A DNA stretch of 64,000 bases, taken from assembly GCA_027488515.1 (NCBI GenBank), contig JAIYBN010000001.1, positions 192,811 to 256,810 of the forward strand, written 5' to 3'. The DNA is from Pseudomonadota bacterium. GTDB lineage: Bacteria; Bdellovibrionota; UBA1018; CAIMNF01. The notes beneath the pieces were generated by a model. It was given only the letters and a program-made list of their open reading frames with translations, did not search any database and was not told the DNA's origin. The translations under genes and the position numbers were made by a program. Shown in pieces: positions 5,840 to 63,575 of this stretch (within the stretch, counting starts at the first letter, position 1; each line of letters begins with the position of its first letter).

Positions 5840-7259
5840 GATCCTGGTGGTTGATGACGATGCAGGCCTCCGCAGCACAGTGACCTCTGCCCTCACAGAG
5901 GGGATGTATCTGGTGGATCAGGCCGCCGACGGTGACGAGGCGGTCACCCGGGTCCGGGCCGGTGAATACGACATGGTCCTCATGGACGTGAACATGCCGA
6001 AAATGTCCGGTATCGAGGCACTGAAGGAGATCAAAGCCCACGATCCCTCAATCATGGTCATCATCCTCACCGCTTTTTCGAACATCCGGGATGCGGTGGA
6101 GGCGACCCGCCTCGGCGCCTACAATTATCTCGAGAAACCCGTACGATCCGACAACCTCGTTTACATGATCGACCAGGCTTTCCGCAGTCAGAACATGGTG
6201 AAGAAGCTCTCTTACTCCGCACCGGTGTTCAACCTTCCGAGCGGGAACGAATTCGTCGGGCAGAGCAACGAGATGAAGAAGATCTTCAGCGTCATCGACC
6301 GGCTCGCACGTGTGGAGACCGCGGTTCTGATCCGGGGCGAGAGCGGTACCGGCAAGGAATTGGTCGCCCAGTCCCTGCATTACAACGGCCCGAGAAAAGA
6401 CAACCGCTTTGTCGCCGTGAACTGTTCGGCCATTCCGGAAACCCTGATGGAGAGCGAGTTCTTCGGTCACGAGAAAGGCGCGTTTACCGGTGCCGACACC
6501 CGGAAGATCGGCAAATTCCAGTATGCCGAGGGCGGAACCCTGTTCCTGGACGAAATCGGCGAGATCCCTCCCTCCATGCAGGTGAAGCTCCTGCGCGTGT
6601 TGCAGGAAAAGAAGTTCACCCCCGTCGGCTCCAACCGTGAAATCGAAATGAATGTCCGGATCGTGGCCGCAACCAATCGTGATCTGGAATCCATGATCGA
6701 GTCGGGCTCGTTCCGTGAAGACCTCTTCTACCGCCTGAATGTGCTTCCGATCCAACTCCCGCCACTCCGGGACCGGAAGAACGACATCGAATCCCTGGCC
6801 CGGTATTTTGTCGAAAAATTCAACCAGCGCTATGCCAAAGAGGTTCGTGGACTCACGCCCGAAGCCCTTGCAGCACTCCGGGTCCACCGCTGGCCGGGGA
6901 ACATCCGGGAGCTCGAGAACGTGCTCGAACACGCTTTCGTCCTGGAATCCGGCGAATGGATCACTTTGGACTCACTCCCCGAAAAGATCCGGAGGTCGGC
7001 GCCCGCCGAGGCGGTTGCCGAGATCGGTCTCGAGGAAGGCGCCGTTCCCATGGAAGGCGAAGCCATGAGTTTCCGGATGAGCATCCAGAAATTCGATTTC
7101 CAGGCGAGCAAAGAGGAGTTCGAGAAGCAGTTCCTCATCAACGCTCTCCGTGCATTCCGGGGCAAGATCAACCAGACCGCCCTCCATGCGAACATCCCGA
7201 AGAAGACCCTTCTCAGGAAACTCGAGAAATACGGAATCACCGCCAAGGATTACAACTGA
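5832..7259 (+). CDS. Sigma54-dependent two-component response regulator (NtrC family).
   Basis: REC domain (MRKILVVDDD...DVNMP), AAA+ sigma54-interaction domain (GESGTGKELVAQSLH, GAFTGA, ESEFFGHEKGAFTGA) and a C-terminal Fis-type HTH. Start overlaps the kinase stop. Confidence 0.9.
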   Translation: MRKILVVDDDAGLRSTVTSALTEGMYLVDQAADGDEAVTRVRAGEYDMVLMDVNMPKMSGIEALKEIKAHDPSIMVIILTAFSNIRDAVEATRLGAYNYLEKPVRSDNLVYMIDQAFRSQNMVKKLSYSAPVFNLPSGNEFVGQSNEMKKIFSVIDRLARVETAVLIRGESGTGKELVAQSLHYNGPRKDNRFVAVNCSAIPETLMESEFFGHEKGAFTGADTRKIGKFQYAEGGTLFLDEIGEIPPSMQVKLLRVLQEKKFTPVGSNREIEMNVRIVAATNRDLESMIESGSFREDLFYRLNVLPIQLPPLRDRKNDIESLARYFVEKFNQRYAKEVRGLTPEALAALRVHRWPGNIRELENVLEHAFVLESGEWITLDSLPEKIRRSAPAEAVAEIGLEEGAVPMEGEAMSFRMSIQKFDFQASKEEFEKQFLINALRAFRGKINQTALHANIPKKTLLRKLEKYGITAKDYN

Positions 7260-8218
7260 GCCGGCTTATTGGCCCGCTCGAGACTTTCGATGCTCTTTTT
7301 GATCTCCACCAGACGTTGACGCTTCGGCTCGATTTCGACCAATAGGTCCTTGAACTTCAAAAGCTGGGGTGACGGAAGCCCCTTCTGTTCCGGCAGGGAT
7401 TCCTGGACTTTTTCGAACAACTCAATGGTGAGCTCGAGATGGTTCAACTCATCCCGCTGCTGGATCAATACCGCCCAAGGGCTCAGGCTCTCGTCCAGAC
7501 CTGCTTGCCGGAGGAGGTTCTGCCTACGGGTCTCCAGCTCCTGATCCCTGAGTGCAAACGCCAACAGGAGTTCTTCCTTCCGGGACTCGGACCATTCTTT
7601 CATGACCTGATCGTGGAAATATTTGCGAGCCGGATAGTTCCAATACCCGAGTTCGGAAAAAGCATTCATCCAACGGATCCGGCATTCGACCGGATGTTCT
7701 TCTTGCTTGCACAGGGGAACGGACTCCTTCTCGAGGAGCTGGAAATGACTCAGCCGACACCGGTTCCCGAGTTCAAAATCCGAAAGGGCTGCCTGCGCGG
7801 GAGTCCGTAACACCTCCTGGTAAAGGCGGAGGATCGATCGACCGGCCCTGACTCCGCAGTGACCGACCAAGTCCGAGAAATCGGCCGGTTCGTGTTTCTT
7901 CAAGAGCAACTCGCGGGTGAGAACACTCTCGGCCCGGTCCACCCCCCAGAAGAGGGGTGCCAGGAGAATGAATCCCAAACCGAATGCGGTGAGACTCCCA
8001 CCGGCACGTGCCCGCAGGCACCGGAACAGGATTCCGGAACAGATCGAAGAAACCAGCAGGAATCCGAACAGGATGAAGAACGAGGAGGAACTGTCCGCGT
8101 CAGGACGCAAAGACGCCTGGAATCGGGCGGCCAAGGCACCCAGAAAAGTGAACAAGAAACCGGAAAACGCTAGAGCGGCCTCACCCGAACGGAACGAAGC
8201 CTTCCGCTTCCGGTTCAC
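7250..8218 (-). CDS. Hypothetical integral membrane protein.
   Basis: Long ORF with three predicted N-terminal TM helices and a soluble C-terminal part. No recognisable family. Confidence 0.45.
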   Translation of the reverse strand: MNRKRKASFRSGEAALAFSGFLFTFLGALAARFQASLRPDADSSSSFFILFGFLLVSSICSGILFRCLRARAGGSLTAFGLGFILLAPLFWGVDRAESVLTRELLLKKHEPADFSDLVGHCGVRAGRSILRLYQEVLRTPAQAALSDFELGNRCRLSHFQLLEKESVPLCKQEEHPVECRIRWMNAFSELGYWNYPARKYFHDQVMKEWSESRKEELLLAFALRDQELETRRQNLLRQAGLDESLSPWAVLIQQRDELNHLELTIELFEKVQESLPEQKGLPSPQLLKFKDLLVEIEPKRQRLVEIKKSIESLERANKPAQL

Positions 8219-37532: not shown

Positions 37533-38822
37533 TCAGAGCCCGGACTCGTGACGGATCAGATCGTTGTAGGTCTCGCGCTTCCGGATCAATTTGACTTGTC
37601 CCCGGTCCACCAGAACCTCGGCCACTCTGGGGCGGGAATTGTAAGTGCTGCTCATCGAAAAGCCGTAGGCTCCGGCCGAAAGGATGGCCAGGACTTCGCC
37701 CGGGAGACCTTCAAGGGCCAACTTGCGCGATTTAGCAAAGTAGTCCGTGCTCTCGCAAATCCCGCCGACGACATCCCAACTCACCGGTTGAGGACCCTTC
37801 TGCTCCAGAGGAAGGATCTCGTGATACGCCTCATACAATGCAGGTCGGACCAGGTCGTTCATTCCGGCATCGAGGATCAAAGTGCGGTCTTTTCCGCGCT
37901 CCTTGGAATACACCACCTGACTGACCAGCGCTCCCGCATTGGCAATCAGACTGCGGCCCGGCTCGATGAGGATCTTCGGAACTCCCTTGAAGTGCTTCAC
38001 GATCAATTCGGCGTACTCAACGAGATCGATCACCTTCTCCTGGTGGTAGCGGACCCCGATCCCACCTCCGAGATCCACATAGTCGAGCTCGCGGCCCAGA
38101 TGCTCCTCCACTTCGAACTTCAGATCCGCCAACCGCTTGAATGCCCGGTCGAAGGGCCGGATGGAGGTGATCTGGCTTCCGATGTGAATGGAAAGCCCTG
38201 CAATCCTCACGAAGTCGTCGTCGCCATACGTGACCGCCAGGTCGAGGATTTCCTCACGGGTGAGGCCGAACTTGTCGTGCTTCCGTCCGGTGGAAATCTT
38301 GTCCAAGGTTCCCGCGTCGACATCCGGATTGTACCGGAACGCGACCGACACGGGGCGCCTCATGGAATTCGCAATCAGGAGGATCATCTCGAACTCCATG
38401 ACCGACTCGACATGGACGGATCCGACACCACCTTCGGGAAGGCGGAACAGACTCTCGAGCTCGCGAGCGGTCTTGGCCACACCGGAAAGAACCCTTTTTT
38501 CACGTGGGATACCGGCCCTTTCAGCCCGATCCCATTCGCCATAGGACACCAGATCGCATCCTGCACCGAGCGAGGAAAGAAGACGCAGGATGGACAGATT
38601 GGAGTTGGCCTTCACCGCGAAACAAATCTGGACAGGTGATTTTTTGAAAGCCTTCGTCAAGGCCGCATAAGACTGGCGGATCGCCCCACCGGAATACACA
38701 TACAAGGGGGACCCGTAGCGCTCCAGGATGCCCTGGAGAGGGATGCCCTCGACAGACAGTTTGCCTTTTTTGTACTCGAAGTGGTCCCGGGGTCCGGGCA
38801 GAGCGTTCAGGGATGGTTTCAT
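37533..38822 (-). CDS. lysA: Diaminopimelate decarboxylase (PLP-dependent, fold-type III).
   Basis: LYVYSGGAIRQSY...ICFAVKANSNLSILRLL (PLP-binding Lys motif) and a C-terminal beta domain. About 429 aa. Confidence 0.8.
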   Translation of the reverse strand: MKPSLNALPGPRDHFEYKKGKLSVEGIPLQGILERYGSPLYVYSGGAIRQSYAALTKAFKKSPVQICFAVKANSNLSILRLLSSLGAGCDLVSYGEWDRAERAGIPREKRVLSGVAKTARELESLFRLPEGGVGSVHVESVMEFEMILLIANSMRRPVSVAFRYNPDVDAGTLDKISTGRKHDKFGLTREEILDLAVTYGDDDFVRIAGLSIHIGSQITSIRPFDRAFKRLADLKFEVEEHLGRELDYVDLGGGIGVRYHQEKVIDLVEYAELIVKHFKGVPKILIEPGRSLIANAGALVSQVVYSKERGKDRTLILDAGMNDLVRPALYEAYHEILPLEQKGPQPVSWDVVGGICESTDYFAKSRKLALEGLPGEVLAILSAGAYGFSMSSTYNSRPRVAEVLVDRGQVKLIRKRETYNDLIRHESGL

Positions 38823-54066: not shown

Positions 54067-55308
54067 ATGAAGGCCTCGATCCTCACCATCGGCGATGAAC
54101 TCCTGATCGGACAGGTCCTGAACTCGAATGTTCAATGGATCAGTGAGCGTCTGACCGCCATCGGCGTCACGGTCACGCGGCACCTGAGTGTCGGTGACGA
54201 GATGGACGAGATCACGGGCGCCCTCCGGTTTTTACAAAGCTCCTGCGATATCTTGATCATCGGAGGGGGCTTGGGCCCCACCCACGATGACCTCACTGTC
54301 GAGGCATTGTCGCGGTACTTCAAAATCCCGCTCCGGTACGACGAAGAATGGGTCGGCAAGATCGAGGAATTTTTCAAATCGCGTGGTCGCCCGATGACCG
54401 AGAACAACAAGAAACAAGGCTACCTGCTCCGGGACGCTGTGCGGATCGACAATGACTGTGGAACCGCTCCGGGGCAATTCTTGATGGAAGGTCGGACCCG
54501 GATCTTCGTGGTACCCGGCGTGCCTCACGAAATGAAGAGCATGATGGATCGGGTGATCCTTCCCAAGCTTTTGAATGACCCCTCGCTCGGCTCGACGCGG
54601 ATCCTGAAAGAAACCCTCCTCACTTCCGGCGTCGGTGAGAGCGCACTCGCCCAGAGGATCGAAATGGATGTGGAGCGGATCCGGAACATCGAGGGAATGA
54701 GTCTCGCCTTCCTCCCTTCGAACACCGGAGTCCGGCTCCGGCTCCAAATGCGGGCCTCCACCCCCGAGGAAGAGGCCACGTTCCGAAGTGAATTCACGGC
54801 TCTCGAGAAAGCTTGCGGGTCCGATGCCTACGGTATCGAACCGGGCACGATCGAGGAGTGCGTTCATCGATTGTTGATGGATCGCGGGGAGACGCTTGCC
54901 ATTGCAGAGAGCTGCACGGGTGGACTCGTTTCACAACGGCTCACCCGGATCGCAGGAGCCTCGAAGATCTTGCGAGGCACACTGATTCCGTATCAGACCG
55001 AACTGAAGACCCGGGAACTCGGAATCCCGGCCACCCTTTTCGAACAGTCGGGAGTGGTGTCCGAGGCGAGTGCGAGAGCCATGGCCGAGAACATCCGCAC
55101 CAAATGGGGAACCACTTGGGGACTTGGAATCACCGGCTACCTGGGCCCGGAAGGGGACGCCTTCGCGCCGGGCGGGACCGTCTGGATTGCGGTGGCCCGG
55201 GAAAACCGGACCCTGGCCCGTGAGTTCCACTTCGAAAATCACCGGGAGCGGGCGCAGGAACGGGCGGCCGCTTATGCCCTTGACTCACTCCGTCGAGCCT
55301 TGACCTGA
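54067..55308 (+). CDS. cinA: CinA-family competence/damage-inducible protein (MoCF-binding domain plus CinA C-terminal domain).
   Basis: MKASILTIGDELLIGQVLNSN and CinA_C region ESCTGGLVSQRL. Confidence 0.85.
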   Translation: MKASILTIGDELLIGQVLNSNVQWISERLTAIGVTVTRHLSVGDEMDEITGALRFLQSSCDILIIGGGLGPTHDDLTVEALSRYFKIPLRYDEEWVGKIEEFFKSRGRPMTENNKKQGYLLRDAVRIDNDCGTAPGQFLMEGRTRIFVVPGVPHEMKSMMDRVILPKLLNDPSLGSTRILKETLLTSGVGESALAQRIEMDVERIRNIEGMSLAFLPSNTGVRLRLQMRASTPEEEATFRSEFTALEKACGSDAYGIEPGTIEECVHRLLMDRGETLAIAESCTGGLVSQRLTRIAGASKILRGTLIPYQTELKTRELGIPATLFEQSGVVSEASARAMAENIRTKWGTTWGLGITGYLGPEGDAFAPGGTVWIAVARENRTLAREFHFENHRERAQERAAAYALDSLRRALT

Positions 55309-55429
55309 CCCCACCCCGGTGCCAATCCGCACTGGAGAATTTCGGGGTCAAAGGGTCACCAGTGGGCCCACCCCCGGGTAGGAACCCTTTGAGTCATTGA
55401 AATCATTGACTAATCTTTTGATACGATTT

Positions 55430-55445
55430 TGGCACGTGCCTTGCT
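55430..55445 (+). promoter_or_regulatory. Sigma54 (RpoN) -24/-12 promoter.
   Basis: TGGCACGTGCCTTGCT matches TGGCACG-N4-TTGCW exactly. It lies 54 nt upstream of the lipoprotein ATG, which has a strong G-rich SD. A TCATTGA-AA-TCATTGA direct repeat sits 20 to 35 nt upstream. Confidence 0.7.
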
Positions 55446-55498
55446 ATTTGCCTGACTGACGTGAACCACACGATGCCGACACAAGGGGGGGCATCTCT

Positions 55499-56263
55499 AT
55501 GAAAACGATCTCTCAATTACTCTGCAATGCCGGACTCCTCATCTTGACCCTGTTCTCTCTGACCGCCTGCGAAACGGTGATTGTTCAAGGAGGCGGGGGA
55601 GTCTATGTCGACCCTTATCGCCGGGCTTGGTACGACGTTTATGGAAACCAATGCACCTCCTATGGATACCCGATGGCGGGTTGCAACTTCTACGCAGACG
55701 GGTCGAAGATCACGGCCAATCAAGATCCGTACGCTTCCACTCGCTCCATTTATTTCGATTATTGGACCTACACGGACTCTTACGGATTCCGCAGGGACTA
55801 CATGGGTTACGCGTGGCTGAGCAGTACCGGCATTCTCTATGACTCATTCGGAAACGCATTGAACGAAATGGACGACGGCTCTTCGCAATCCGCGGACATC
55901 ATCGCTGCCGCGGCCGAACAGGAAGAGGCCAGCTCCCGGGCAGCCGGACGCACCCTTTCCCAAAAATACGCACTGGCTGAATCGGCCGGAGTGAGCATTG
56001 CAAAAACCCTCCAGGACTGGGCGGTGCTCGGACGTGACCGCGCCAGAACCCAGGCCGATGTCGAAGACTTCAGCAAGCGCCTGTATGGCGTGAATCTGTC
56101 TCGAGCCACCCTCGCAGTGAAGGAAGCCGCAAAAGGCAACCGTCAAGCCCTCACCGAGGTCAACATCGATGTCGCGGCTCACTGGGGCACGAATCCTGAA
56201 ACCTCAAAGCAAATCTTGAGCGAATGGTACCGCGAGGAGCTTGCCCGACTCGGAGCGAAGTGA
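55499..56263 (+). CDS. Lipoprotein of unknown function (sigma54-dependent, monocistronic).
   Basis: Lipobox LFSLTACE. Gly/Tyr/Asp-rich N-terminal half. Flanked by a sigma54 promoter and a strong terminator. Confidence 0.6.
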   Translation: MKTISQLLCNAGLLILTLFSLTACETVIVQGGGGVYVDPYRRAWYDVYGNQCTSYGYPMAGCNFYADGSKITANQDPYASTRSIYFDYWTYTDSYGFRRDYMGYAWLSSTGILYDSFGNALNEMDDGSSQSADIIAAAAEQEEASSRAAGRTLSQKYALAESAGVSIAKTLQDWAVLGRDRARTQADVEDFSKRLYGVNLSRATLAVKEAAKGNRQALTEVNIDVAAHWGTNPETSKQILSEWYREELARLGAK

Positions 56264-56288
56264 ACCTTTTGACAGCTCAAACCATTGG

Positions 56289-56326
56289 CACCTGAAACAC
56301 CTTGTGTTTCAGGTGCTTTTTTTTTA
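56289..56326 (+). terminator. Rho-independent terminator.
   Basis: CACCTGAAACAC-CTT-GTGTTTCAGGTG perfect 12-bp stem followed by T9. Confidence 0.85.
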
Positions 56327-56347
56327 CCGAGCCTTTAACCTTGTAGC

Positions 56348-56959
56348 ATGGATCAAGCAAAGGAGTTCCTCCTCCAGTACCAGGGGATTCAGGCCTATCT
56401 GGTATTTTATTTCACACTGATCGGATGTGGAATCGGCATGCCGATCAACTCCGATCTCACCTTGATTGCCGCCTCGGTGCTCGCTGCACTCGGTTTCTTC
56501 AAACTGCCGATCCTGATTCCGGTCGCCTTCCTCGGTCTCCTGAGCGGAGACACGATCAATTATCTCGTCGCGCGCAAGTACGGGCCGAGAATCCTGAAGA
56601 AGGCTCCCTTCAAGTGGATCCTCACGCCAGGCAAGGTCGCCGCTGCCGAACGTTATCTCGAAAAACGGGGAACCCGGTTCCTGTTTCTGGTCCGGTTCCT
56701 TCCCTTGATCCGGACGGCACTGTACTTCACCGCGGGCTCCTTGCAAGTTCGCGCCCGGACCTTTTTCCTTCTGGATGCGATTTCGACCGTGATCTACCTG
56801 CTCGGGCTCATGAATCTCGCCCATACCGCCGGTGCGAACATCGACTCCCTGATTGAGGGCTTCAAACGCTTCCAGTTCGGCTTGCTCGGATTCCTGCTCA
56901 CCGGATCCCTTTTCATCCTCTACCGGAATCGCCGGACAAAAAGGACTCTCGCCTCATGA
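56348..56959 (+). CDS. DedA-family (VTT/SNARE-associated domain) membrane protein.
   Basis: DedA signature region LVARKYGPRILKKAP...FLFLVRFLPLIRTALYFTAGS. About 200 aa with 4 to 5 TM helices. Confidence 0.8.
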   Translation: MDQAKEFLLQYQGIQAYLVFYFTLIGCGIGMPINSDLTLIAASVLAALGFFKLPILIPVAFLGLLSGDTINYLVARKYGPRILKKAPFKWILTPGKVAAAERYLEKRGTRFLFLVRFLPLIRTALYFTAGSLQVRARTFFLLDAISTVIYLLGLMNLAHTAGANIDSLIEGFKRFQFGLLGFLLTGSLFILYRNRRTKRTLAS

Positions 56960-59316
56960 ACCGTCTCCTGCTCTGGGTCTCGGCCCTCCCCTTGGTCCTC
57001 ATCGCGGCCTTCTTCCAGATCACACTCGATCTGGGGGAGCGCGGAGAACTGGAATCCAAATTCCTTCGGGGAACCATCTATCCGATCGCACGATCGGTGA
57101 CGGGAGCGCTGACCAACATCAAGTTCCGCTTGCGCGGACCCGAGTCCGGCAACCAGAAGATCGTGATTCTTGCGGCGGATGAGGAATCAATCGTTGCACA
57201 TGGCCGCTGGCCCTGGCATCGGGAGGTCTACGCCAAGATCATCGACCGGCTCCTCGCAATGGGAGTCAAGACCATCGGATTCGACATGGTGCTCTCGGAG
57301 CCTGAGGAGCGGATCCACCAAAAGGCCTACAAGCTCGTCGAAAAACACAACCCCTCCCTCTTGAAGGATTTCCTCGAACTTGAGAGCGATCCGCAACTGG
57401 CTCAAGCGATCGCTCGAGCAAAAGATAAACTGGTATTGGGCTACGCCTACGACGGGGCCTGCCAGCCCAGGTATGAGAAAGATGAATCTTGTCCACTCTC
57501 CGCAGCTGGAACCTCGGCGAAGATCCGGAATAGCATCGGAAAGTTCGCCATCGAGCAACCCTATCCCTTTCCCAAAGAAACCCTTTGGGGGACCTCGCTC
57601 AGGAACCTGTATCACTTAATCCCGAATATCGATCTCTTCAGTGACAATGCCCGTTATGCCGGGATCTTCAACGCGGATCTTGACCCGGACGGTTACATCC
57701 GGCGCTACGGATTGTTCTCCTTTTCCGAAAACCTCATCCTTCCTTCACTTGCAGTGAAGATGGCGGAGCTCGCCCGGGATGATCAGATCCAAATCGAATT
57801 CCGTCCGGACGGTCTCATCAAGAAAGCCTATTTCAAGAAGGACCCCGCAAATCCGATTCCGGTGACCCCGCTCGGGTACATGGATATCAACTTCAAAGGG
57901 CCGAACCATTACCAGCTCGAGAAAGAGATTCCGGGATACGAACCGTACTACTACATTCCGGTCCATCATTTGCTGGACAAAAAACTCACCCCCATCGATG
58001 AAGCAGAGCTCCAAGAAATCCTCTTTGACTCACATGTGCTGTTCGGTGCGACGGCTCTCGGGGTTTATGACATGAGGGCCTTCCCCTTCGATTCGAACAC
58101 CCCCGGGGTCGAAGGTCACGCGACAGCCCTCGACAACCTGATTGCCGGCAACCAACTCCGCTCGGCCAGCGCCATCCACATGAGCTGGTTGCCTTTGACC
58201 TTGATCGTGGTCTTCGGCCTGGTTTTCATCTTTCTGTTTTCGAGCCTGGACGCCATCCCGAGCATCCTCGTCTTCATCGGATTCTTGAGCGTCTTGGGTT
58301 GGATCGACATCCGCATCTTGTTCAAGAATCACATCAACCTGTCGACTGCTTTCCTCCTGATCGAGACCTTTCTCATTTTCGTCACCCTGCTCTCGATCCG
58401 GTACATCTTGGAGGAAAAGAAGAAGAAATTTGTGAAAGAGGCGTTCTCCAAATACCTCGCCCCGCAAGTCGTGGAACTGGTCCTCGAGGATCCGAGCAAG
58501 CTCCAGGTCGGCGGTGAGCGGAAGGAAGTCACCATCCTGTTCAGCGATCTCCGTGGCTTCACGAACTTTTCGGAGAACATGGACCCGAAGGTGCTCACCC
58601 AGTTCCTGAACGAGTACCTCTCCGAAATGACCGAGATCATCTTCCAACACGAGGGGACCCTCGACAAGTACATCGGGGACGCGATCATGGCCTTCTGGGG
58701 CGCACCCATCGACCAGAAGGATCATGTGGAGCGTGCGTGGCGGGCCGCCGTGGCCATGAAAAAGCGTCTCGACGAGATCGCACCGGACTTCAAAAAACGT
58801 TACGGGATCGACGTCAGTGCCGGGATCGGCATCAACTCGGGACTGGTCAGCGTCGGAAACATGGGCTCCAAGAGGATTTTCGAGTACACCGTGATCGGAG
58901 ATCACGTGAACCTCGCATCCCGACTGGAAAGCCTGACCCGATTGTACGGTGGAGACATTCTGAGTACCGAGGTGACCCGGGAGAGGCTCCCGGAAGGGGT
59001 CCAGGGACAATTCCACACCCGGATTCTCGACTCGGTGATCGTAAAGGGGAAGACCAAGGCGGTCGATCTGATCCAGATCTCCGAAGTGGAGTTCGACCCC
59101 GAGCTGATCCGCAACTTCACCGAGGCCCGCGAAGCATTCAAACACCGGGAATGGGAAGTGGCCCGGACCAAGTTCACGCTCGCCAGTGAAATCCAGAAAG
59201 CCCGCACCGGTTCGGTTGATCCGGTCTCCGAGATCTACCTCTCGCGTTGCGTGGAGTTCGAGAAAAATCCCCCTCCGCCCGACTGGGATGGAACGATAGA
59301 AATGCGCAGGAAATGA
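56956..59316 (+). CDS. CHASE2-domain membrane-bound class III adenylate/guanylate cyclase.
   Basis: N-terminal TM and periplasmic CHASE2-like domain, three TM helices, then a cyclase homology domain (EVTILFSDLRGFT; YIGDAIMAFWGAP; VGNMGSKRIFEYTVIGDHVNLASRLES). Confidence 0.85.
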   Translation: MNRLLLWVSALPLVLIAAFFQITLDLGERGELESKFLRGTIYPIARSVTGALTNIKFRLRGPESGNQKIVILAADEESIVAHGRWPWHREVYAKIIDRLLAMGVKTIGFDMVLSEPEERIHQKAYKLVEKHNPSLLKDFLELESDPQLAQAIARAKDKLVLGYAYDGACQPRYEKDESCPLSAAGTSAKIRNSIGKFAIEQPYPFPKETLWGTSLRNLYHLIPNIDLFSDNARYAGIFNADLDPDGYIRRYGLFSFSENLILPSLAVKMAELARDDQIQIEFRPDGLIKKAYFKKDPANPIPVTPLGYMDINFKGPNHYQLEKEIPGYEPYYYIPVHHLLDKKLTPIDEAELQEILFDSHVLFGATALGVYDMRAFPFDSNTPGVEGHATALDNLIAGNQLRSASAIHMSWLPLTLIVVFGLVFIFLFSSLDAIPSILVFIGFLSVLGWIDIRILFKNHINLSTAFLLIETFLIFVTLLSIRYILEEKKKKFVKEAFSKYLAPQVVELVLEDPSKLQVGGERKEVTILFSDLRGFTNFSENMDPKVLTQFLNEYLSEMTEIIFQHEGTLDKYIGDAIMAFWGAPIDQKDHVERAWRAAVAMKKRLDEIAPDFKKRYGIDVSAGIGINSGLVSVGNMGSKRIFEYTVIGDHVNLASRLESLTRLYGGDILSTEVTRERLPEGVQGQFHTRILDSVIVKGKTKAVDLIQISEVEFDPELIRNFTEAREAFKHREWEVARTKFTLASEIQKARTGSVDPVSEIYLSRCVEFEKNPPPPDWDGTIEMRRK

Positions 59317-59317
59317 T

Positions 59318-60313
59318 ATGAGCGCCAAAGAAGTCAACCTGAAACAGAAAGACATCCTTTTCGAGGAGGGCGACCCCTCGAAAAACCTCTACTTTGTCAA
59401 AAAAGGGGCGATCCGGCTCTTCCGCAGGAAGGGGGACGGGAAGATCGAGATCGACACCGTCCGCGCAGGCTCCGTATTGGGTGAGTTGGCGTTTTTCGAC
59501 GGCCAACCCCGCTCGGCTTCGGCGGAGGCCTTGCTTCCGACCGACCTGATCGAGATCTCCAAAGGGTCTCTCGACGATGCGCTTTCCAAGATCCCCGAGT
59601 GGCTGGTGACTTTGATCAAGACCATCAGTTCGCGCCTGAGGGCCGCGAACAACAAGGTCCGGATTCTGGAGAGCCTTTCGACCGAGTACGAAGTGGACAA
59701 GCACGGGAACCGTTCGAAGGAGTACTGCTTCGTGACCACTCCCGAATTGCTGAAGTTCTCGACCGCGCTGCTCACAGTGGCCTCCCGCTACGGCAAGAAC
59801 GAGAAGCCGGACGGAATCGAGTTCACCTCCGCCATGCTCGAGCGCTTCGCGACCCAGATCCTCCAGGTTCCCTCGGCCAAAGTGTTGAGCCTGATCGAGC
59901 TCATGAAGACGGTCAAGATCCTGAAAGACGATCTCATGCTCACCGACATCCGGTTCCTCGACCAGTTCATCCAATTCGTGAATGAACAGAACCTGACGGC
60001 CCACGAGAAGAGACAAACCCTTTCGGAATCCGGATTCAAGATCCTGGGCCTCATGGTCCAGAACAGGGCTCAAGCCAAGCCTCTCGCCGACTCGGTCGAA
60101 CGTCTCAACATCGGACCCGCCATTCAACAGGCCAAGATCCCCGTGGGACAGATCCAGGAGTTGCAGGACCAGGGCTTCATCAAGAACATCACGCTTGTCT
60201 CGGCGAACGAGGTACTGCTCGACTACGAGGGAAGTAACCTGCTGTTCCTGTACCGCGTGTACTGGGTTCTGACCGAGATCGACCGCCTCAACGAGGAGAA
60301 GCGGAAGAAATGA
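59318..60313 (+). CDS. Cyclic-nucleotide-binding domain protein with a C-terminal domain of unknown function.
   Basis: N-terminal cNMP-binding cassette (ILFEEGDPSKNLYFVKKGAIRL...GSVLGELAFFDGQPRSASAEAL). About 200 aa C-terminal region without a recognisable HTH. Start 2 nt after the cyclase stop. Confidence 0.75.
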   Translation: MSAKEVNLKQKDILFEEGDPSKNLYFVKKGAIRLFRRKGDGKIEIDTVRAGSVLGELAFFDGQPRSASAEALLPTDLIEISKGSLDDALSKIPEWLVTLIKTISSRLRAANNKVRILESLSTEYEVDKHGNRSKEYCFVTTPELLKFSTALLTVASRYGKNEKPDGIEFTSAMLERFATQILQVPSAKVLSLIELMKTVKILKDDLMLTDIRFLDQFIQFVNEQNLTAHEKRQTLSESGFKILGLMVQNRAQAKPLADSVERLNIGPAIQQAKIPVGQIQELQDQGFIKNITLVSANEVLLDYEGSNLLFLYRVYWVLTEIDRLNEEKRKK

Positions 60314-60992
60314 CGACGAAGCTCTCGATCTTGCGCTTCGAGACGAGTTCCTTGCCCTTCGCTTCAGCGGCCTTGCGGGATTTGAATCCCGAAAGCACGA
60401 CCCGATAACGGGTCTCCCCGTTCACCTTTGCAGTCCGGACCTCGGTCTTCAGTCCGCGTTTGGTGAAGACCCCCGTTTTTTTACGGGCGGCCTGGATGTT
60501 GGGGTAAGAGCCCAGTTGGACCGCAAAAGTTTCAGCGGGCGCCGCGTGCTTCTCTGTGTTTTTTTCTGCAGTTTTTTCCGCGACCTCTTCCTCTTCTTCT
60601 TCCTCTTCTTCAGCGACCGGAGGATGGGTCACCGCTGTCGGGAGGGCCATGGGCGGATGCACGGTTTTCTCGGTCGGGAGCTCGACCGGCTTCGGATGAT
60701 CCAACTTGATCCCGGATTCAGCCGCAGCCTTCTCGGTGGCACCCTCGATCGCGTCTTTGGTCGCCTGATCCACGTATTGGGCACCCTGATCCAGAACCGC
60801 ACGAGGAGGAGTCGACTCATGCCCACCCTCGACCTTCGGAGCGGGAGCCTCGGCCACCGGATCGTCCACGCGGATCTGCTTTCCGTAGTGCAGTCCGAGC
60901 GTGAAGCAGAATCCGAGGGCGGTCACCACGAGAAGTCCGAGAACGAACAACTCTTTCCAGCTGAAAATGAAAAATTTCTCGCTCTTTTGCAT
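60288..60992 (-). CDS. SPOR-domain (peptidoglycan-binding) membrane-anchored protein with an acidic linker.
   Basis: Start at MQKSEKFF, TM (LFVLGLLVVTALGFCF), poly-Glu tract (EEEEEEEEEE), and a C-terminal SPOR domain (FAVQLGSYPNIQAARK...RYRVVLSGFKSRKAAEA). Confidence 0.7.
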   Translation of the reverse strand: MQKSEKFFIFSWKELFVLGLLVVTALGFCFTLGLHYGKQIRVDDPVAEAPAPKVEGGHESTPPRAVLDQGAQYVDQATKDAIEGATEKAAAESGIKLDHPKPVELPTEKTVHPPMALPTAVTHPPVAEEEEEEEEEVAEKTAEKNTEKHAAPAETFAVQLGSYPNIQAARKKTGVFTKRGLKTEVRTAKVNGETRYRVVLSGFKSRKAAEAKGKELVSKRKIESFVVISSASPR

Positions 60993-61013
60993 CAAGTTCG
61001 AGTCTACTCCCGT

Positions 61014-61029
61014 TGGCGCGGTTTTTGTA
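61014..61029 (+). promoter_or_regulatory. Possible sigma54-type promoter upstream of the Flp-like pilin gene (imperfect).
   Basis: TGGCGCGGTTTTTGTA versus consensus TGGCACG-N4-TTGCW (2 mismatches). Predicted TSS falls within a few nt of the ATG at 61042, which would imply a leaderless or near-leaderless transcript. Confidence 0.3.
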
Positions 61030-61041
61030 GACCAAAGAAAC

Positions 61042-61218
61042 ATGAATCGAATCTCTTTGAAACGTCCCGACCGGAGCGGCCAAGGCCTGAGCGAATACAT
61101 CATTCTCGTCATGCTGATCGCGGTATGTTCGATCGCCGCTTCCCGGACGGTGGGCTCCACCATCAAAACCAAGCTCGACACCATCAACCAGAAACTCCTC
61201 GAGATCCACATCCCCTGA
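61042..61218 (+). CDS. flp: Flp/Fap-family (type IVb, Tad-type) prepilin.
   Basis: 58 aa. Basic leader (MNRISLKRPDRSG) followed by QGLSEYIILVMLIAVCSIAA, i.e. the G|XXXXEY class-III signal with a hydrophobic helix, then a short polar tail. Size and motif are typical of Flp pilins. Confidence 0.55.
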   Translation: MNRISLKRPDRSGQGLSEYIILVMLIAVCSIAASRTVGSTIKTKLDTINQKLLEIHIP

Positions 61219-61577
61219 ACCGGAGATGCGGACAAAGCCTGATCGAATTCCAGTGGGCGATGTTGCTCATCCTGCTTCCATTGGCCGGGGGGGCGGTCCG
61301 GATGGGTTGGATCGAATTCGCCCGGATCCGATGCGGACTCCGTGCCTTCCAGGCCGCCCGGGAAGAACTCCTCCATACCGCCGCCCCTGTGGTCCGTCTG
61401 GAGCCCTGCGGAGGCGGAATGGAGGAGCGGATCCGTCTCCTGCCCCTGGAACGCCTCGACCGGACCGGGCGGGATTCTCCGTCCTCGGTGGAATTCTCCT
61501 TCTCATGGCTCTCAGCGGGGGAACAGGCCTCTGGATTGCCGCCCGACACCTCCGCGCCATCACGGAGCGCCAGGTGA
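61215..61577 (+). CDS. TadE-like pseudopilin candidate (start codon uncertain).
   Basis: Frame translates ...NRRCG|QSLIEFQWAMLLILLPLAGGAV...IEFAR, resembling the TadE N-terminal motif (G|xxxVEFAL... / IEFGR). The only in-frame start upstream of the Gly is CTG at 61215, overlapping the flp stop. An ATG at 61260 would remove the motif. Confidence 0.35.
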   Translation: MNRRCGQSLIEFQWAMLLILLPLAGGAVRMGWIEFARIRCGLRAFQAAREELLHTAAPVVRLEPCGGGMEERIRLLPLERLDRTGRDSPSSVEFSFSWLSAGEQASGLPPDTSAPSRSAR

Positions 61578-62038
61578 ACTTCGATCGCTGTACGGGAATG
61601 GCGGTTCTCCGCGTGCGTTCCTGGATCACCGCACACGAAAAGTCCTGGAAACGGATCGAGTCGGCGCGAAGGATCACACTGGGCTTGCTCCCGACACCGG
61701 CCGGCCCGACCGCGGTCGAATCCTTCCGGATCCTCCTGGTGGCGGAACGGGGGATCCAGGAAAAATTCCGTCTGGAATGGATTCAAAGCTCCCTGCGCTG
61801 GAATCTCCTCACCGGGGTCGGTTGCCGCTTGCGCCGGCGCCCCGAGCGGAGTGACTTCCCGGAATACGATTTGATCCTGGTGGAGCCGGATGCGGAGGCA
61901 ATGCTGACCGGTGCCGGGTCCCGGATTCCGATTCCACGCGACGAATACCGGGTCAGGATCGCCTCCCGGAATCAAAACTCTTCCGCGGTGGCATGGAGGT
62001 CTCCCGATGAAACTTGGAAGGTCCGATGGATTCCCTGA
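61505..62038 (+). CDS. Hypothetical protein with an N-terminal hydrophobic segment (frame-2 ORF, real coding part only).
   Basis: The listed 270-aa ORF has a P/R/G-rich, non-protein-like N-terminal 90 aa. Protein-like sequence begins near MALSGGTGLWIAARHLRAITERQ... and continues to the stop. It overlaps the 3' end of the TadE-like ORF by about 70 nt. Confidence 0.3.
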   Translation: MALSGGTGLWIAARHLRAITERQVNFDRCTGMAVLRVRSWITAHEKSWKRIESARRITLGLLPTPAGPTAVESFRILLVAERGIQEKFRLEWIQSSLRWNLLTGVGCRLRRRPERSDFPEYDLILVEPDAEAMLTGAGSRIPIPRDEYRVRIASRNQNSSAVAWRSPDETWKVRWIP

Positions 62039-62186
62039 ACGCCAGCGGGGATCCGTATTCCTGGAGGTGGCACTGTGGGCAGGCCTGATCGTGTTCGTTC
62101 TGGTTCTTTGTGGCAATCGCTTCGCCCGGACCTATCGGGGCTTTTATCGCGCCTTGGAGCACCAGCGGTCGACCCTGCATTACTGA
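62007..62186 (+). CDS. Second small Flp/TadE-like prepilin-type protein.
   Basis: 59 aa. Good SD (GGAGG, 7-nt spacer). Leader MKLGRSDGFPERQRG followed by SVFLEVALWAGLIVFVLVL (G|XXXXEV-AL class-III-like motif plus hydrophobic helix), then a short tail. Confidence 0.45.
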   Translation: MKLGRSDGFPERQRGSVFLEVALWAGLIVFVLVLCGNRFARTYRGFYRALEHQRSTLHY

Positions 62187-62191
62187 GACAA

Positions 62192-62614
62192 GTGCGGGCC
62201 CTGCTGGGCCTGCTCGCGGGCCTCGTTCTGGTGGCACTGGCCCATCGAGGGTCCTTCGAGGCGGGGGCACGCCGGTTTCATGAGGAACACCTCCTCCCCG
62301 GAGAGGCCTGGCGTTCCGTACTGGCCACCCGCGGATTCCGTCCTCTTGCTTTGAACCGGGGTTCTCCGGGGGACGGCAAGGTCCGGATTTCACAGGATGG
62401 CCGGATCATCGAGTTTCCCGGTGGGATTCCTGACCTACCCACGGGGGTCCACATCCGGGGGGTCCCTGCCCCCAAACCGGATTGGATCGAGCTCAGCCCC
62501 GGAATTGCCGGTTTCGAAGCCTGGATCCGGAGCCTGGAAGCCCATCCGATTCCCCGGGCAAAGTCGACGAAGCCCCAGGTCAATTCGATTGACCCCAAAG
62601 AGTTCCGCTATTAG
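62192..62614 (+). CDS. Small membrane-anchored protein at the end of the pilin-like operon.
   Basis: GTG start 6 nt after the previous stop. N-terminal TM ALLGLLAGLVLVALA followed by a roughly 120-aa soluble domain. No family recognised. Confidence 0.35.
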   Translation: MRALLGLLAGLVLVALAHRGSFEAGARRFHEEHLLPGEAWRSVLATRGFRPLALNRGSPGDGKVRISQDGRIIEFPGGIPDLPTGVHIRGVPAPKPDWIELSPGIAGFEAWIRSLEAHPIPRAKSTKPQVNSIDPKEFRY

Positions 62615-62624
62615 AATCCCGGCC

Positions 62625-63575
62625 ATGCACACACGCCCCACCCGTCCGATTCTGACCGTCGGTTCCATGGCCTTCGACTCCGTTCGCACCCCAGCCGGGA
62701 AAGCGGACCATGTCCTCGGAGGCTCGGTGAATTATTTCTCTTTGGCCGCCTCACTGTTCACGCCGATCAAGATCGTCGCTGTGGTCGGTGATGACTTCCC
62801 GAAGGAGCACCTCGGATTCCTGAAAGAACGCAATGTGGACGTCTCCGGCGTGCAAGTCGCAGCCGGCAAGACCTTCCACTGGGTGGGTGAATACGACACC
62901 AACCTGAACGAGGCCAAGACCCTCGCCACCGCTCTGAACGTGTTCGAGCATTTCGACCCCAAACTTCCGGAAACCCACACCGACTGCCCCGTGGTCTTCC
63001 TCGCGAACATCGACCCGGTCCTGCAACTGCAGGTCCTGAACCAGGTTCGCGGTCATGAGTTCGTGGCCTGCGATTCGATGAACTTCTGGATCACCGGAAA
63101 GCCTGCGGAACTCAAGGAGACCCTGAAACAGGTGGATCTCCTCTGCATCAACGAAAAAGAGGCGTTCCTGCTCTCTGACGAAAAGAGCCTCGAAAAAGCA
63201 GCCCGCAAGATCCAGTCCATGGGCCCTTCCAACATCATCATCAAACGTGGTGAATACGGCTCGGCCCTCTTCACCCCGACCGGTACTTTCCTCGCCCCTG
63301 CATTCCTGGTCGACGAAGTCATCGATCCGACCGGAGCCGGAGACAGCTTTGCCGGAGCCGTGATGGGTTATCTGGCCGAGGCCGGAGCCAATCGTGCGAT
63401 GATGAAGAACGATCCCCAAGCCTGGGATCAACTCCTCCGCCGTTCGGTCGTCTACGGAACCGTGATGGCGAGCTTCACCATCCAGGATTTCAGTATCGGC
63501 CGTCTGAAGACCCTCTCCCGCGAAGACCTGATGCACCGGAGAGAGAAATTCATGAGAATGATGAGCGTCGGATGA
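62625..63575 (+). CDS. PfkB-family carbohydrate/nucleoside kinase (ribokinase-like).
   Basis: PfkB signature DPTGAGDSFAGAVMGYL and a ribokinase-like fold. Start at MHTRPTRPILTVGSMAFD, internal to the listed ORF. Confidence 0.8.
   Translation: MHTRPTRPILTVGSMAFDSVRTPAGKADHVLGGSVNYFSLAASLFTPIKIVAVVGDDFPKEHLGFLKERNVDVSGVQVAAGKTFHWVGEYDTNLNEAKTLATALNVFEHFDPKLPETHTDCPVVFLANIDPVLQLQVLNQVRGHEFVACDSMNFWITGKPAELKETLKQVDLLCINEKEAFLLSDEKSLEKAARKIQSMGPSNIIIKRGEYGSALFTPTGTFLAPAFLVDEVIDPTGAGDSFAGAVMGYLAEAGANRAMMKNDPQAWDQLLRRSVVYGTVMASFTIQDFSIGRLKTLSREDLMHRREKFMRMMSVG

Follow-up and report, generated by a model that had tools for sequence, protein, structure and literature searches.

Bd2879 of Bdellovibrio bacteriovorus was crystallised (PDB 9SFA, 2025; CASP16 target T1298), and the authors of the structure described both of its modules as winged helix-turn-helix (HTH) domains and regarded it as a putative transcription factor (PMC12750041). 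Bd1971 is a cAMP-activated EAL phosphodiesterase (PDB 6HQ5), in the crystal structure of which E58, R67, S68, and R108 contact cAMP (PMC6717892). In Sinorhizobium meliloti, the cyaD1 locus unites a CHASE2 cyclase, CyaD1, with the CRP-like regulator Clr and a gene that Clr targets, smc02178 (PMC4222275, PMC13001267); generator, receiver, and target are thus clustered, which sets a precedent for the circuit proposed below. The locus described here lies in a 64-kb window (i.e., the whole stretch of DNA that was analysed) and comprises three tightly packed plus-strand genes, encoding a DedA/VTT protein, a CHASE2 class III cyclase, and a cNMP-binding protein (henceforth called receptor). With a probability of roughly 0.6, the whole is an operon for cAMP signalling, lineage-specific and belonging to an uncultured bacterium of the Bdellovibrionota, in which an envelope signal would be passed via cAMP to a CRP-like regulator encoded in the same operon.

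All three open reading frames (ORFs) have homologues and are genuine genes rather than chance ORFs, and their coordinates in the first-pass annotation were confirmed (Table 1). The DedA stop and the cyclase start share the sequence ATGA (overlap 56956-56959), and the spacer between cyclase and receptor, previously given as 2 nt, is 1 nt (TGA at 59314-59316, receptor ATG at 59318), with AGGA located 6 nt upstream of the receptor ATG. The stretch between the DedA start and a lipoprotein-like ORF upstream of it contains a hairpin (RNA fold -22.6 kcal/mol, z -7.3), which is likely that ORF's intrinsic terminator and marks the operon's 5' boundary; the two arms, CACCTGAAA and TTTCAGGTG, showed unusually high sequence conservation, were kept in loci L001, L002, L004, L007, L008, and L009, and had no second copy in the window.

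Table 1 Features of the operon and its flanks (positions in the 64-kb window)
Feature	Position	Strand	Basis
Hairpin, 14-bp stem followed by a T9 run	56287..56317	+	Terminator scan
DedA/VTT-domain membrane protein, 203 aa	56348..56959	+	Pfam VTT_dom, E 2.4e-18
Receptor-type class III adenylate cyclase (predicted), 786 aa	56956..59316	+	Pfam CHASE2, Guanylate_cyc
Periplasmic CHASE2 domain, cyclase residues 55-422 (predicted layout)	57118..58221	+	Pfam
Cytoplasmic catalytic domain, cyclase residues 523-702 (predicted layout)	58522..59061	+	
cNMP-binding protein (receptor), 331 aa	59318..60313	+	Pfam cNMP_binding
cNMP-binding beta-roll and long C-helix, receptor residues 1-119	59318..59674	+	Pfam, AF2
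Beta-hairpin insertion STEYEVDKHGNRSKEY, receptor residues 120-139	59675..59734	+	AF2, hhalign, conservation
Winged helix 1 and linker helix, receptor residues 140-230	59735..60007	+	AF2, hhalign, Foldseek
Winged helix 2, C-terminal helix, and stop, receptor residues 231-331	60008..60313	+	AF2, Bd2879 alignment
SPOR-domain membrane protein, convergent (context only)	60288..60992	-	Pfam SPOR, E 1.7e-10
Flp-like prepilin candidate, 58 aa, G/QGLSEY motif (context only)	61042..61218	+	Pfam Flp_Fap

DedA, for which the NCBIfam DedA and UptA matches fell under their cutoffs, had been counted as part of the module, but its linkage is limited to the nearest clade (L001-L007, L009-L013, and L024, with L008 as an exception lacking DedA), and it may be a clade-specific passenger of the operon. 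The SPOR gene downstream, whose start at 60992 was chosen by us inside a 362-aa ORF (60288-61376), is conserved in most loci; because it lies on the opposite strand, converges on the receptor gene, and overlaps its 3' end by 26 nt (60288-60313), it was treated as a neighbour outside the operon. Divergent from it lies the Flp-like gene, a candidate with a sub-threshold Flp_Fap score (19.5 bits vs a Pfam cutoff of 32.2) and tblastn matches in 43 of 80 loci. The adjacency to SPOR and Flp/TadE-like genes noted before holds as a conserved neighbourhood, but the genes belong to separate transcription units and no TadE domain was detected; the suggested control of envelope or fibre functions by the module was not supported beyond this neighbourhood.

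The cyclase matched Pfam CHASE2 (E 4.4e-44) and Guanylate_cyc (E 2.5e-25). A first transmembrane (TM) helix was predicted at residues 4-22, and a hydrophobic region spanning about residues 412-485, in which a hydropathy scan gave two peaks (416-434 and 463-481), was read by eye as three TM helices. The nearest solved relatives are purine cyclases with E-values of about 1e-33, namely Cya2 (2w01, E 6e-33) and Pseudomonas aeruginosa CyaB (3r5g, E 3e-32). The first-pass annotation had called for a check of catalytic and substrate-specifying residues, and the cyclase does not lack essential ones, since all six (D531, K571, D575, T645, N652, and R656) are present; they are invariant wherever aligned among the linked cyclases of 48 loci, including the adenine-specifying Lys/Thr pair K571/T645. 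Judging from these residues, the cyclase should make cAMP.

In the receptor, the Pfam cNMP_binding match (E 6e-21) spanned residues 6-90 only, and the canonical cNMP cassette motif GELAFFDGQPRSASAEA reported earlier was found at residues 55-71. The phosphate-binding cassette is formed by G55-E56...R65-S66-A67, and the C-helix (residues 94-119) bears R106 and N111; G55, R65, S66, A67, R106, and R108 are invariant in the family and E56 is nearly so. The domain matched the cNMP domains of CRP, GlxR, and Bd1971, and since the contact residues are conserved, the receptor likely binds cAMP in a CRP/Bd1971-type domain.

The C-terminal domain (CTD) had been taken for a novel one, with structural modelling proposed as a check; the AlphaFold (AF2) model (pLDDT 88, pTM 0.81) instead gave two winged-helix modules and a terminal helix, homologous to the CTD of Bd2879 (PDB 9SFA). 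The latter was the only significant fold match in the PDB (Foldseek TM 0.69, rmsd 3.8 Å, E 2.9e-7), and 9sfa was matched by the full-length receptor profile (A1) at E 2.3e-20 (chain residues 4-334) and by the CTD-only profile at E 1.2e-4. Between the C-helix and winged helix 1 stands the family-specific hairpin insertion, 19 residues in excess of ordinary CRPs (hhalign), which was modelled at low confidence (AF2 pLDDT <50 at 119-132) and in which G130 and R132 are nearly invariant. Winged helix 1 occupies the place taken in CRP by the DNA-binding domain (DBD) and has its topology in the AF2 secondary structure (alpha, beta-hairpin, alpha, alpha, wing), and over 82 columns Foldseek aligned it locally with chains of GlxR and CRP (probability 0.93-0.98). 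Lys or Arg is found in 97% of 93 superfamily representatives at K146, the basic position of CRP alpha-D, and in 99% at K188, where the recognition helix starts. Winged helix 2 (residues 231-304) has a third helix of conserved acidity, which bears E281, and the long terminal helix (305-330) closes with a conserved LNExKRK motif including the conserved N325 and K328. Across the family, both winged helices are acidic to neutral, with median pI values of 5.0 (winged helix 1) and 6.1 (winged helix 2).

As stated in the first-pass annotation, the receptor is not a standard CRP/FNR protein: HTH models of Pfam and NCBIfam gave no match on it, Pfam HTH_45 was touched by only two of 21 relatives, and the CTD alone was not significantly similar to the CRP HTH region (hhalign probability 4%). 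The converse possibility of a diverged CRP-type HTH proved partly right, because winged helix 1 shares CRP-DBD topology, stays in register across the CRP HTH region in hhalign, and keeps the basic K146 and K188.

Full-length relatives of the receptor (n = 82) were 28-93% identical to it. The CTD, which begins about 100-200 residues into every full-length protein, is a rare one, with 141 clusters in a set of 1.84 billion representatives, and nearly all related genomic loci carry a Bdellovibrionota label. The proposed pairing of generator and receiver was borne out: of 63 evaluable loci, 44 have a same-strand cyclase directly 5' of the receptor, even where receptor identity is as low as 33%, and the gap between the two genes has a median of 9 nt overall and is 0-1 nt in the close clade. 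An adjacent cyclase is absent from the other 19, and the SPOR, Flp-like, and pfkB neighbourhood is kept even at loci without it. One clade of receptor paralogues is sited after thiolase and CoA-transferase genes.

In the proposed circuit, the CHASE2 domain would sense a periplasmic or envelope cue, upon which the cyclase would, according to its residues, produce 3',5'-cAMP to be taken up by the co-translated receptor; the C-helix would then relay the signal to the Bd2879-type module of two winged helices. As the output, cAMP-dependent binding of winged helix 1 to DNA, with control of transcription, is most likely, whereas winged helix 2 might, together with the terminal helix, pack the dimer or contact partners. 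Candidate targets are the promoter of the operon itself and the neighbouring conserved SPOR and Flp-like genes. Against this reading stand the acidic to neutral winged helices, the missing HTH-model matches, the non-significant similarity of the CTD alone to the CRP HTH region, and the 19 loci that have no adjacent cyclase; moreover, an operator sequence was not identified, and the searchable literature gave no demonstration of DNA binding by any member of the receptor family, Bd2879 included.

Winged helices often mediate protein contacts, which lends support to a non-transcriptional output, with the tandem winged helices acting as a cAMP-switched protein-interaction adaptor for envelope, division, or fibre machinery (e.g., the SPOR or Flp-like proteins) or for a signalling enzyme as with Bd1971. 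The family-wide acidic to neutral character of both winged helices, the conserved acidic third helix of winged helix 2, the failure of HTH sequence models, and the persistence of the SPOR, Flp-like, and pfkB genes at loci that lost the cyclase would all suit an adaptor, as would Bd1971, where a cNMP domain already governs a non-DNA output in Bdellovibrio (PMC6717892). We nevertheless consider it rather unlikely: winged helix 1 sits at the exact position of the CRP DBD with identical topology and register, the basic residues of alpha-D and of the recognition helix start are retained, Bd2879 was read as a transcription factor by the structure's authors (PMC12750041), the SPOR and Flp-like genes belong to separate transcription units, and the paralogues behind thiolase and CoA-transferase genes hold a typical local-regulator position.

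Chance proximity of an ordinary CRP/FNR regulator to an unrelated cyclase, in which case the two would form no dedicated circuit, is improbable. Relatives are automatically annotated as "CRP-like cAMP-binding protein" or "Crp/Fnr family transcriptional regulator," and about 30% of the evaluable loci have no adjacent cyclase, but the close same-strand adjacency persists to 33% receptor identity, the receptor falls below the Pfam and NCBIfam CRP-family cutoffs, and the extra winged helix, hairpin insertion, and terminal helix set it apart. A Pycsar-like anti-phage system, i.e., an infection-triggered cyclase with a CNBD-containing effector, is hardly credible: the two-gene arrangement, the PADLOC matches of PycC models to the cyclase domain (best E 9.9e-30) and of PycTIR models to the receptor CNBD (E 1.5e-8), and N111, an Asn at the base-recognition position as in PycTIR (PMC11224242) but one that reads adenine in Bd1971, are outweighed by the confinement of these matches to generic cyclase and CNBD folds with the TIR or TM effector part unmatched, the invariant purine-specifying K571/T645 (48 loci), the weak similarity to solved PycCs (6yii and 7r65, about 1e-4, vs 1e-33 to 1e-36 for AC/GCs; PMC11224242), the CHASE2 membrane-receptor nature of the cyclase, and a chromosomal position beside housekeeping genes that is conserved in related loci, unlike a mobile defence island.

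The preferred reading, a cyclase feeding a CRP-like regulator, can be set against the known systems as follows. Escherichia coli CRP/CAP and actinobacterial CRP/GlxR share with the receptor the beta-roll cNMP domain, the G-E...R-S-A cassette, the C-helix, and a following domain of the order alpha, beta-beta, alpha-alpha, wing, as in winged helix 1. The receptor differs in its extra winged helix and C-terminal helix, which lengthen it by about 120 residues in all, the hairpin inserted after the C-helix, and a recognition helix with few basic residues, and it scores under all NCBIfam CRP/FNR cutoffs (44.8 bits vs 266). Clr, as a member of the CRP family, has one HTH domain and was described as a canonical regulator of that family, whereas the receptor has two winged helices and a terminal helix. 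The likeness to the S. meliloti system of CyaD1, CyaD2, CyaK, and Clr lies in a CHASE2 class III cyclase feeding a CRP-superfamily cAMP receptor (PMC4222275, PMC13001267, PMC5498481), although lineage and biology differ. Bd1971 is among the closest matches of the receptor's cNMP domain (profile E 1.1e-20), its cAMP-contacting E58, R67, S68, R108, and N113 corresponding to E56, R65, S66, R106, and N111, but its output is an EAL enzyme instead of winged helices.

Bd2879 shares with the receptor the bacterial lineage, an N-terminal cNMP domain of about 118 residues, the C-helix, two winged-helix modules, and a final helix of the form (E)IEK(W/L)NE(K), the alignment of its HTH2 including EIEKWNEK. 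It nonetheless branches far from the receptor within the superfamily (identity only 12-16% in fold alignments; against the CTD profile, E about 1e-4), with a degenerate P-loop (T65/S66 and D54/Q55) where the receptor family has the canonical E56 and R65/S66, and with a disordered C-terminal tail carrying a zinc-finger motif, which is absent from the receptor as the latter ends at residue 331. The 19-residue beta-hairpin after the C-helix is in turn a feature of the receptor family that distinguishes it from Bd2879, and an operonic CHASE2 cyclase is demonstrated for the receptor family. The fold of the receptor's C-terminal part is already known through a crystallised relative, and the cyclase-receptor pair is a conserved feature of predatory bacteria of the Bdellovibrio type.

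A CHASE2-sensor class III cyclase and the cNMP-binding protein encoded directly behind it (hereafter the receptor) were interpreted as a paired generator and receiver of cAMP, a reading to which we assign a probability of about 85%. The observation stands, and conservation speaks strongly for the pairing. The coordinates of the three open reading frames (ORFs) in the first-pass annotation were exact, and the cyclase-receptor gap, given there as 2 nt, is a single base (TGA-T-ATG). An AGGA is located 6 nt upstream of the receptor start, the end of the DedA gene overlaps the cyclase start in ATGA, and cyclase and receptor are predicted to be co-transcribed and are probably translationally coupled. 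The DedA protein contains the hydrophobic segments (hydropathy scan) of a VTT/DedA family member and scored far under the cutoffs of the NCBIfam DedA and UptA equivalogs, so the assignment stays at family level.

Features of the operon and its flanks, with positions in the window
Feature	Positions	Strand or location	Basis
ORF, 254 aa, lipoprotein-type signal (LTAC lipobox)	55499-56263	+	no Pfam or NCBIfam match
Terminator-like hairpin, 14-bp stem + T9	56287-56317	5' of operon	RNA fold -22.6 kcal/mol, z -7.3
-10-like box (TAACCT)	56334-56347		about 7-12 nt before DedA ATG
VTT/DedA membrane protein, 203 aa	56348-56959	+	Pfam PF09335, E 2.4e-18
CHASE2 + class III cyclase, 786 aa	56956-59316	+	Pfam CHASE2, Guanylate_cyc
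cNMP-binding receptor, 331 aa	59318-60313	+	sole Pfam match cNMP_binding (PF00027), residues 6-90, E 6e-21
Overlap of convergent SPOR gene 3' end with receptor gene, 26 nt	60288-60313	- (SPOR)	no terminator between the 3' ends
Flp-like ORF, prepilin candidate, 58 aa, G/QGLSEY motif	61042-61218	+	Flp_Fap match below threshold
ORF 3' of Flp-like ORF	61226-62038	+	no Pfam match
ORF 3' of Flp-like ORF	62075-62614	+	no Pfam match

In the cyclase, the predicted extracytoplasmic CHASE2 domain (residues 55-422, PF05226, E 4.4e-44) is placed between an N-terminal transmembrane helix and a transmembrane cluster, as in CHASE2 receptors, and the catalytic domain spans residues 523-702 (Guanylate_cyc, PF00211, E 2.5e-25). 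Transmembrane segments were located at residues 4-22, 416-434, and 463-481 by hydropathy scan, and the hydrophobic block after CHASE2 (about 412-485) was read by eye as three putative transmembrane helices, so that the catalytic domain would be cytoplasmic. The closest solved relatives were Synechocystis Cya2 (2w01, E 6e-33) and P. aeruginosa CyaB (E 3e-32). In class III cyclases, a Lys combined with Thr or Asp specifies adenine, and a Glu-type pair specifies guanine. The metal-binding aspartates D531 and D575, the substrate pair K571 (in DKYIGD) and T645 (in EYTVIG), and the transition-state residues N652 (Asn) and R656 (Arg) are all present, and in the cyclases from 48 related loci none of them varies where aligned; the concern raised in the first-pass annotation that essential catalytic residues might be lacking therefore falls away. 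K571 is positioned opposite the Glu of the guanylyl cyclase Cya2 (TIDEFMGD), the residue that makes Cya2 a guanylyl cyclase, and T645 is positioned opposite the Thr of CyaB. By its residues, the protein qualifies as a class III adenylate cyclase, and cAMP is the predicted product.

The receptor's nucleotide-binding domain (NBD), at the N-terminus, has the beta-roll, phosphate-binding cassette, and C-helix of CRP/FNR proteins. Residues 2-123 matched CRP, GlxR, and NtcA, with the cNMP domain of the Bdellovibrio protein Bd1971 (PDB 6HQ5) among the closest, and a helix was modelled by AlphaFold at residues 94-119 (putative dimerising C-helix). Residues invariant in the 45 family members include G55, R65, S66, A67, R106, and R108, with E56 almost invariant as well. 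The profile alignment pairs E56, R65, S66, R106, and N111 of the receptor with E58, R67, S68, R108, and N113 of Bd1971, which contact the ribose and phosphate, cap the base, and contact its edge in the cAMP complex (PMC6717892), and because these contact residues have equivalents, the NBD looks ligand-competent. Bd1971 and Bd2879 (a second Bdellovibrio protein with a cNMP domain, PDB 9SFA) have a crossover, domain-swapped C-helix dimer; by reading of the profile alignment, the Ala94-equivalent position is Ile92 in the receptor.

The C-terminal domain (CTD) of about 200 residues had been called novel in the first-pass annotation, where nothing was recognised because a single-sequence search of the C-terminal 200 residues gives no Pfam, NCBIfam, or PDB sequence match. 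By Foldseek and profiles, it is a tandem winged helix, and a homologue, Bd2879, has been crystallised. The receptor's departure from a standard CRP was borne out and the novelty of the domain was not, the domain consisting of two winged helices and a helix. The full receptor was modelled by AlphaFold with a 45-sequence alignment at pLDDT 84, and the CTD alone at pLDDT 88 and pTM 0.81. The model comprises a low-confidence beta-hairpin (120-139), a module of alpha, beta-hairpin, alpha, alpha, and wing (140-230, winged helix 1), a second module of the same topology (231-304, winged helix 2), and a long terminal helix (305-330). Internal duplication of the winged helices was rejected for want of sequence evidence (hhalign 1 vs 2, probability 0.1%). 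In Foldseek searches against the PDB, Bd2879, whose entry is titled 'cyclic nucleotide binding transcription factor', ranked first for the full-length model (E 2.7e-19, 339-346 columns) and was the sole significant match for the CTD model alone (TM 0.69, rmsd 3.8 A, E 2.9e-7). The receptor family profile aligned to Bd2879 residues 4-334 (E 2.3e-20), including the terminal EIEKWNEK motif, and the CTD-only profile still matched Bd2879 (E 1.2e-4). Among the 80 related loci, no close Bd2879 ortholog was present (best 31% identity in short N-terminal segments, about 22% over the full length), and cluster look-ups, whose entries were all unnamed or MAG-derived, identified no ortholog in B. bacteriovorus HD100.

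Aligned with HTH-containing CRPs by hhalign, the family stayed in register from the NBD through winged helix 1 to residue 215, the hairpin (120-139) being a 19-residue insertion relative to ordinary CRPs. For the CTD alone against the CRP HTH region, the register was unchanged at a non-significant probability of 4% (E 0.009), and local Foldseek matches of the CTD to GlxR/CRP chains covered 82 columns (probability 0.93-0.98, weak E of about 0.4). K146, aligned to the conserved alpha-D Arg of CRPs, and K188, at the start of the recognition helix, are Lys or Arg in 97% and 99%, respectively, of 93 full-length superfamily representatives (including the window protein and Bd2879). HTH models, including the CRP-type PF13545 and PF00325, gave no match to the receptor, and the NCBIfam CRP model scored 44.8 bits vs a cutoff of 266, covering residues 8-119 only; neither the single recognised C-terminal HTH nor the above-cutoff score of CRP/FNR proteins was found. 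The alternative that the receptor is an ordinary CRP homologue with a diverged HTH finds partial support in winged helix 1, which is in CRP register in the full-length alignment, and fails on the presence of two winged helices and on the below-cutoff score. The CTD groups with Bd2879 and is probably an elaboration of CRP; the system as a whole, which overturns nothing, would amount to a CRP-type circuit whose output domain has been elaborated.

DNA binding via winged helix 1 is a plausible prediction, and a transcriptional output of the receptor is considered fairly probable. A periplasmic cue would act on the CHASE2 domain, activation of the cyclase would raise cAMP, the receptor dimer would shift conformation via the C-helix, and the winged-helix module would then alter its DNA binding. 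A non-transcriptional adaptor output is fairly unlikely; in its favour, the winged helices are acidic to neutral (family median pI 5.0 for winged helix 1 and 6.1 for winged helix 2), the third helix of winged helix 2 is conserved-acidic, and Bd1971 offers a precedent. Somewhat more doubtful is the specific proposal that the tandem winged helix is a cAMP-switched, non-DNA-binding adaptor that ties an envelope-sensing CHASE2 cyclase to envelope or fibre machinery, with partners such as the conserved neighbouring SPOR and Flp-like genes; if true, it would add an output class, neither transcriptional nor enzymatic, that is new for bacterial cAMP receptors in predators. In a milder candidate version, the receptor would bind DNA, its two winged helices per subunit recognising an operator of unusual length such as the conserved CACCTGAAA-N9-TTTCAGGTG palindrome 5' of the receptor's own operon.

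The arms of this palindrome are those of the terminator-like hairpin, and they were found once in the 64-kb window, by which a genome-wide repeat was ruled out. The hairpin was present at the equivalent position in the related loci L001, L002, L004, L007, L008, and L009, with arm sequences kept across loci whose receptors share only 56-98% identity; L006 and L024 have lost the left arm and retain the right arm and T-run. The hairpin is centred about 46 nt upstream of the DedA ATG and so may also serve as a promoter or operator element. A look-alike palindrome at 38480-38506 was dismissed as imperfect and located inside a 429-aa ORF, one-mismatch half-sites occurred at chance frequency (20 found vs 15.7 expected), and an Rfam scan of 55000-63000 returned no match at E <= 1. 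The -10-like box is conserved upstream in L001-L013 and L024, with relatives reading TAAAAT or TAAACT, and there is no obvious Shine-Dalgarno sequence; the operon may be transcribed with a very short leader or none. Close-clade loci keep the 254-aa ORF 5' of the operon (58-96% identity).

An exhaustive HMM search of 1.84 billion representatives with the CTD profile yielded no more than 141 clusters; hits of 300 aa or longer all measured 305-420 aa, with the CTD beginning at about residue 100-200 and presumably preceded by one NBD. The Arg-Ser phosphate cradle is kept in 77/93 full-length representatives and lost in the Bd2879 branch (representatives P0224, P0229, P0219, and P0222). Related loci originated almost entirely from Bdellovibrionota-labelled assemblies (e.g., Bdellovibrionales, Bacteriovoracaceae, 'Oligoflexia'), and one locus from a pond MAG, 98% identical, is evidently from the window's species. 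The contig of L009 (CALPVV020000058.1), which carries a full Bdellovibrionota-type locus, bears the label 'Nitrosovibrio sp. Nv4' MAG, probably through misbinning or mislabelling in the public record.

A CHASE2 cyclase is encoded immediately upstream of the receptor on the same strand in 44 of the 63 evaluable loci (gaps of -4 to 115 nt, median 9), and the linkage persists down to 33% receptor identity. DedA is linked only in L001-L007, L009-L013, and L024 and is missing from L008, which leaves cyclase plus receptor as the conserved core. That an ordinary CRP came to lie beside a cyclase by coincidence is improbable, as the tight linkage persists. A Pycsar-like anti-phage defence system is highly improbable: PADLOC PycC models match the cyclase and PycTIR models match the receptor, but the PycC matches reflect the generic cyclase fold, the purine K/T pair is invariant in linked cyclases, solved PycCs (6YII, 7R65) match the cyclase at about 1e-4 vs 1e-33 for adenylate and guanylate cyclases (PMC11224242), the PycTIR models cover only the cNMP-binding domain (receptor residues 5-115), the C-terminus is a tandem winged helix without TIR or transmembrane segment, and the chromosomal position is conserved.

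Variants of the arrangement were also observed. In L021 (6411-7712, minus strand) and L037 (6403-7782, minus strand), a divergent HisKA/HATPase histidine kinase occupies the cyclase position, and the downstream SPOR and pfkB genes are retained. Distant receptor paralogues (L059, L064, L066, and L067; 32-35% identity) have no upstream cyclase; in L066, thiolase and CoA-transferase A/B genes (5408-7951, Pfam) precede the paralogue, the upstream ORFs in L059, L064, and L067 match these in size (about 394-420/231/219 aa), and L069 and L072 have ORFs of similar size. By gene context, the position of this clade is that of a putative local metabolic regulator. A single-domain response-regulator receiver gene divergent from the CHASE2 cyclase (L023, 5131-5526, minus strand) is common to most loci from L014 on (Bacteriovoracaceae-type), with a very short intergenic region, and suggests cross-talk with a two-component pathway.

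Downstream of the receptor, the SPOR gene (minus strand), the Flp-like ORF, and the pfkB kinase gene recur, sometimes with other genes between, and this neighbourhood is conserved synteny; the Flp-like ORF lies between the SPOR and pfkB genes in 43/80 loci. The stretch from the SPOR gene to pfkB showed no notable inverted repeats, and no TadE domain was detected by Pfam near the operon, where TadE-like genes had been proposed.

Signalling by cAMP is barely charted in Bdellovibrio-type predators, in which Bd1971 is the single published cAMP-binding protein structure and the cyclases serving as cAMP source were deferred to "ongoing study" (PMC6717892, PMC12750041). For Bd2879, a structure is available, with no ligand, partner cyclase, or target assigned. 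Across the Bdellovibrionota-labelled loci examined, genes for ligand-competent members of the wider Bd2879-type family usually follow directly after a CHASE2 receptor cyclase gene. The locus supplies a specific cyclase-receptor pair with a candidate neighbourhood of targets and allows a clean comparison of canonical-cassette and degenerate-cassette branches. By titles and abstracts, the papers found on Bdellovibrio, adenylate cyclase, and CHASE2 together did not concern this module, and within the literature searched, the shared operon of the canonical-cassette branch and a CHASE2 adenylate cyclase, seen across the related loci examined, appears to be unreported.

Judged from alignments and models, the receptor joins an apparently ligand-competent cNMP domain of the CRP/Bd1971 type to a tandem winged helix of the Bd2879 type. 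As described by the authors of its structure, Bd2879 begins with an NBD (1-118), continues with two winged HTH domains at 125-228 and 237-335, and closes with a disordered tail that carries a zinc-finger motif; they regard it as a putative transcription factor whose C-helix crosses over as in Bd1971 (PMC12750041). The receptor is homologous to it over the full length, with NBD, C-helix, both winged helices, and terminal helix in common, but lacks the zinc-finger disordered tail (Bd2879 residues 343-380); it ends at residue 331 with LNEEKRKK and is thus placed in a different subfamily. The best functional precedent for the pair is the S. meliloti cyaD1 locus, which groups a CHASE2 cyclase with the CRP-like Clr and Clr's target smc02178 (PMC4222275, PMC13001267).
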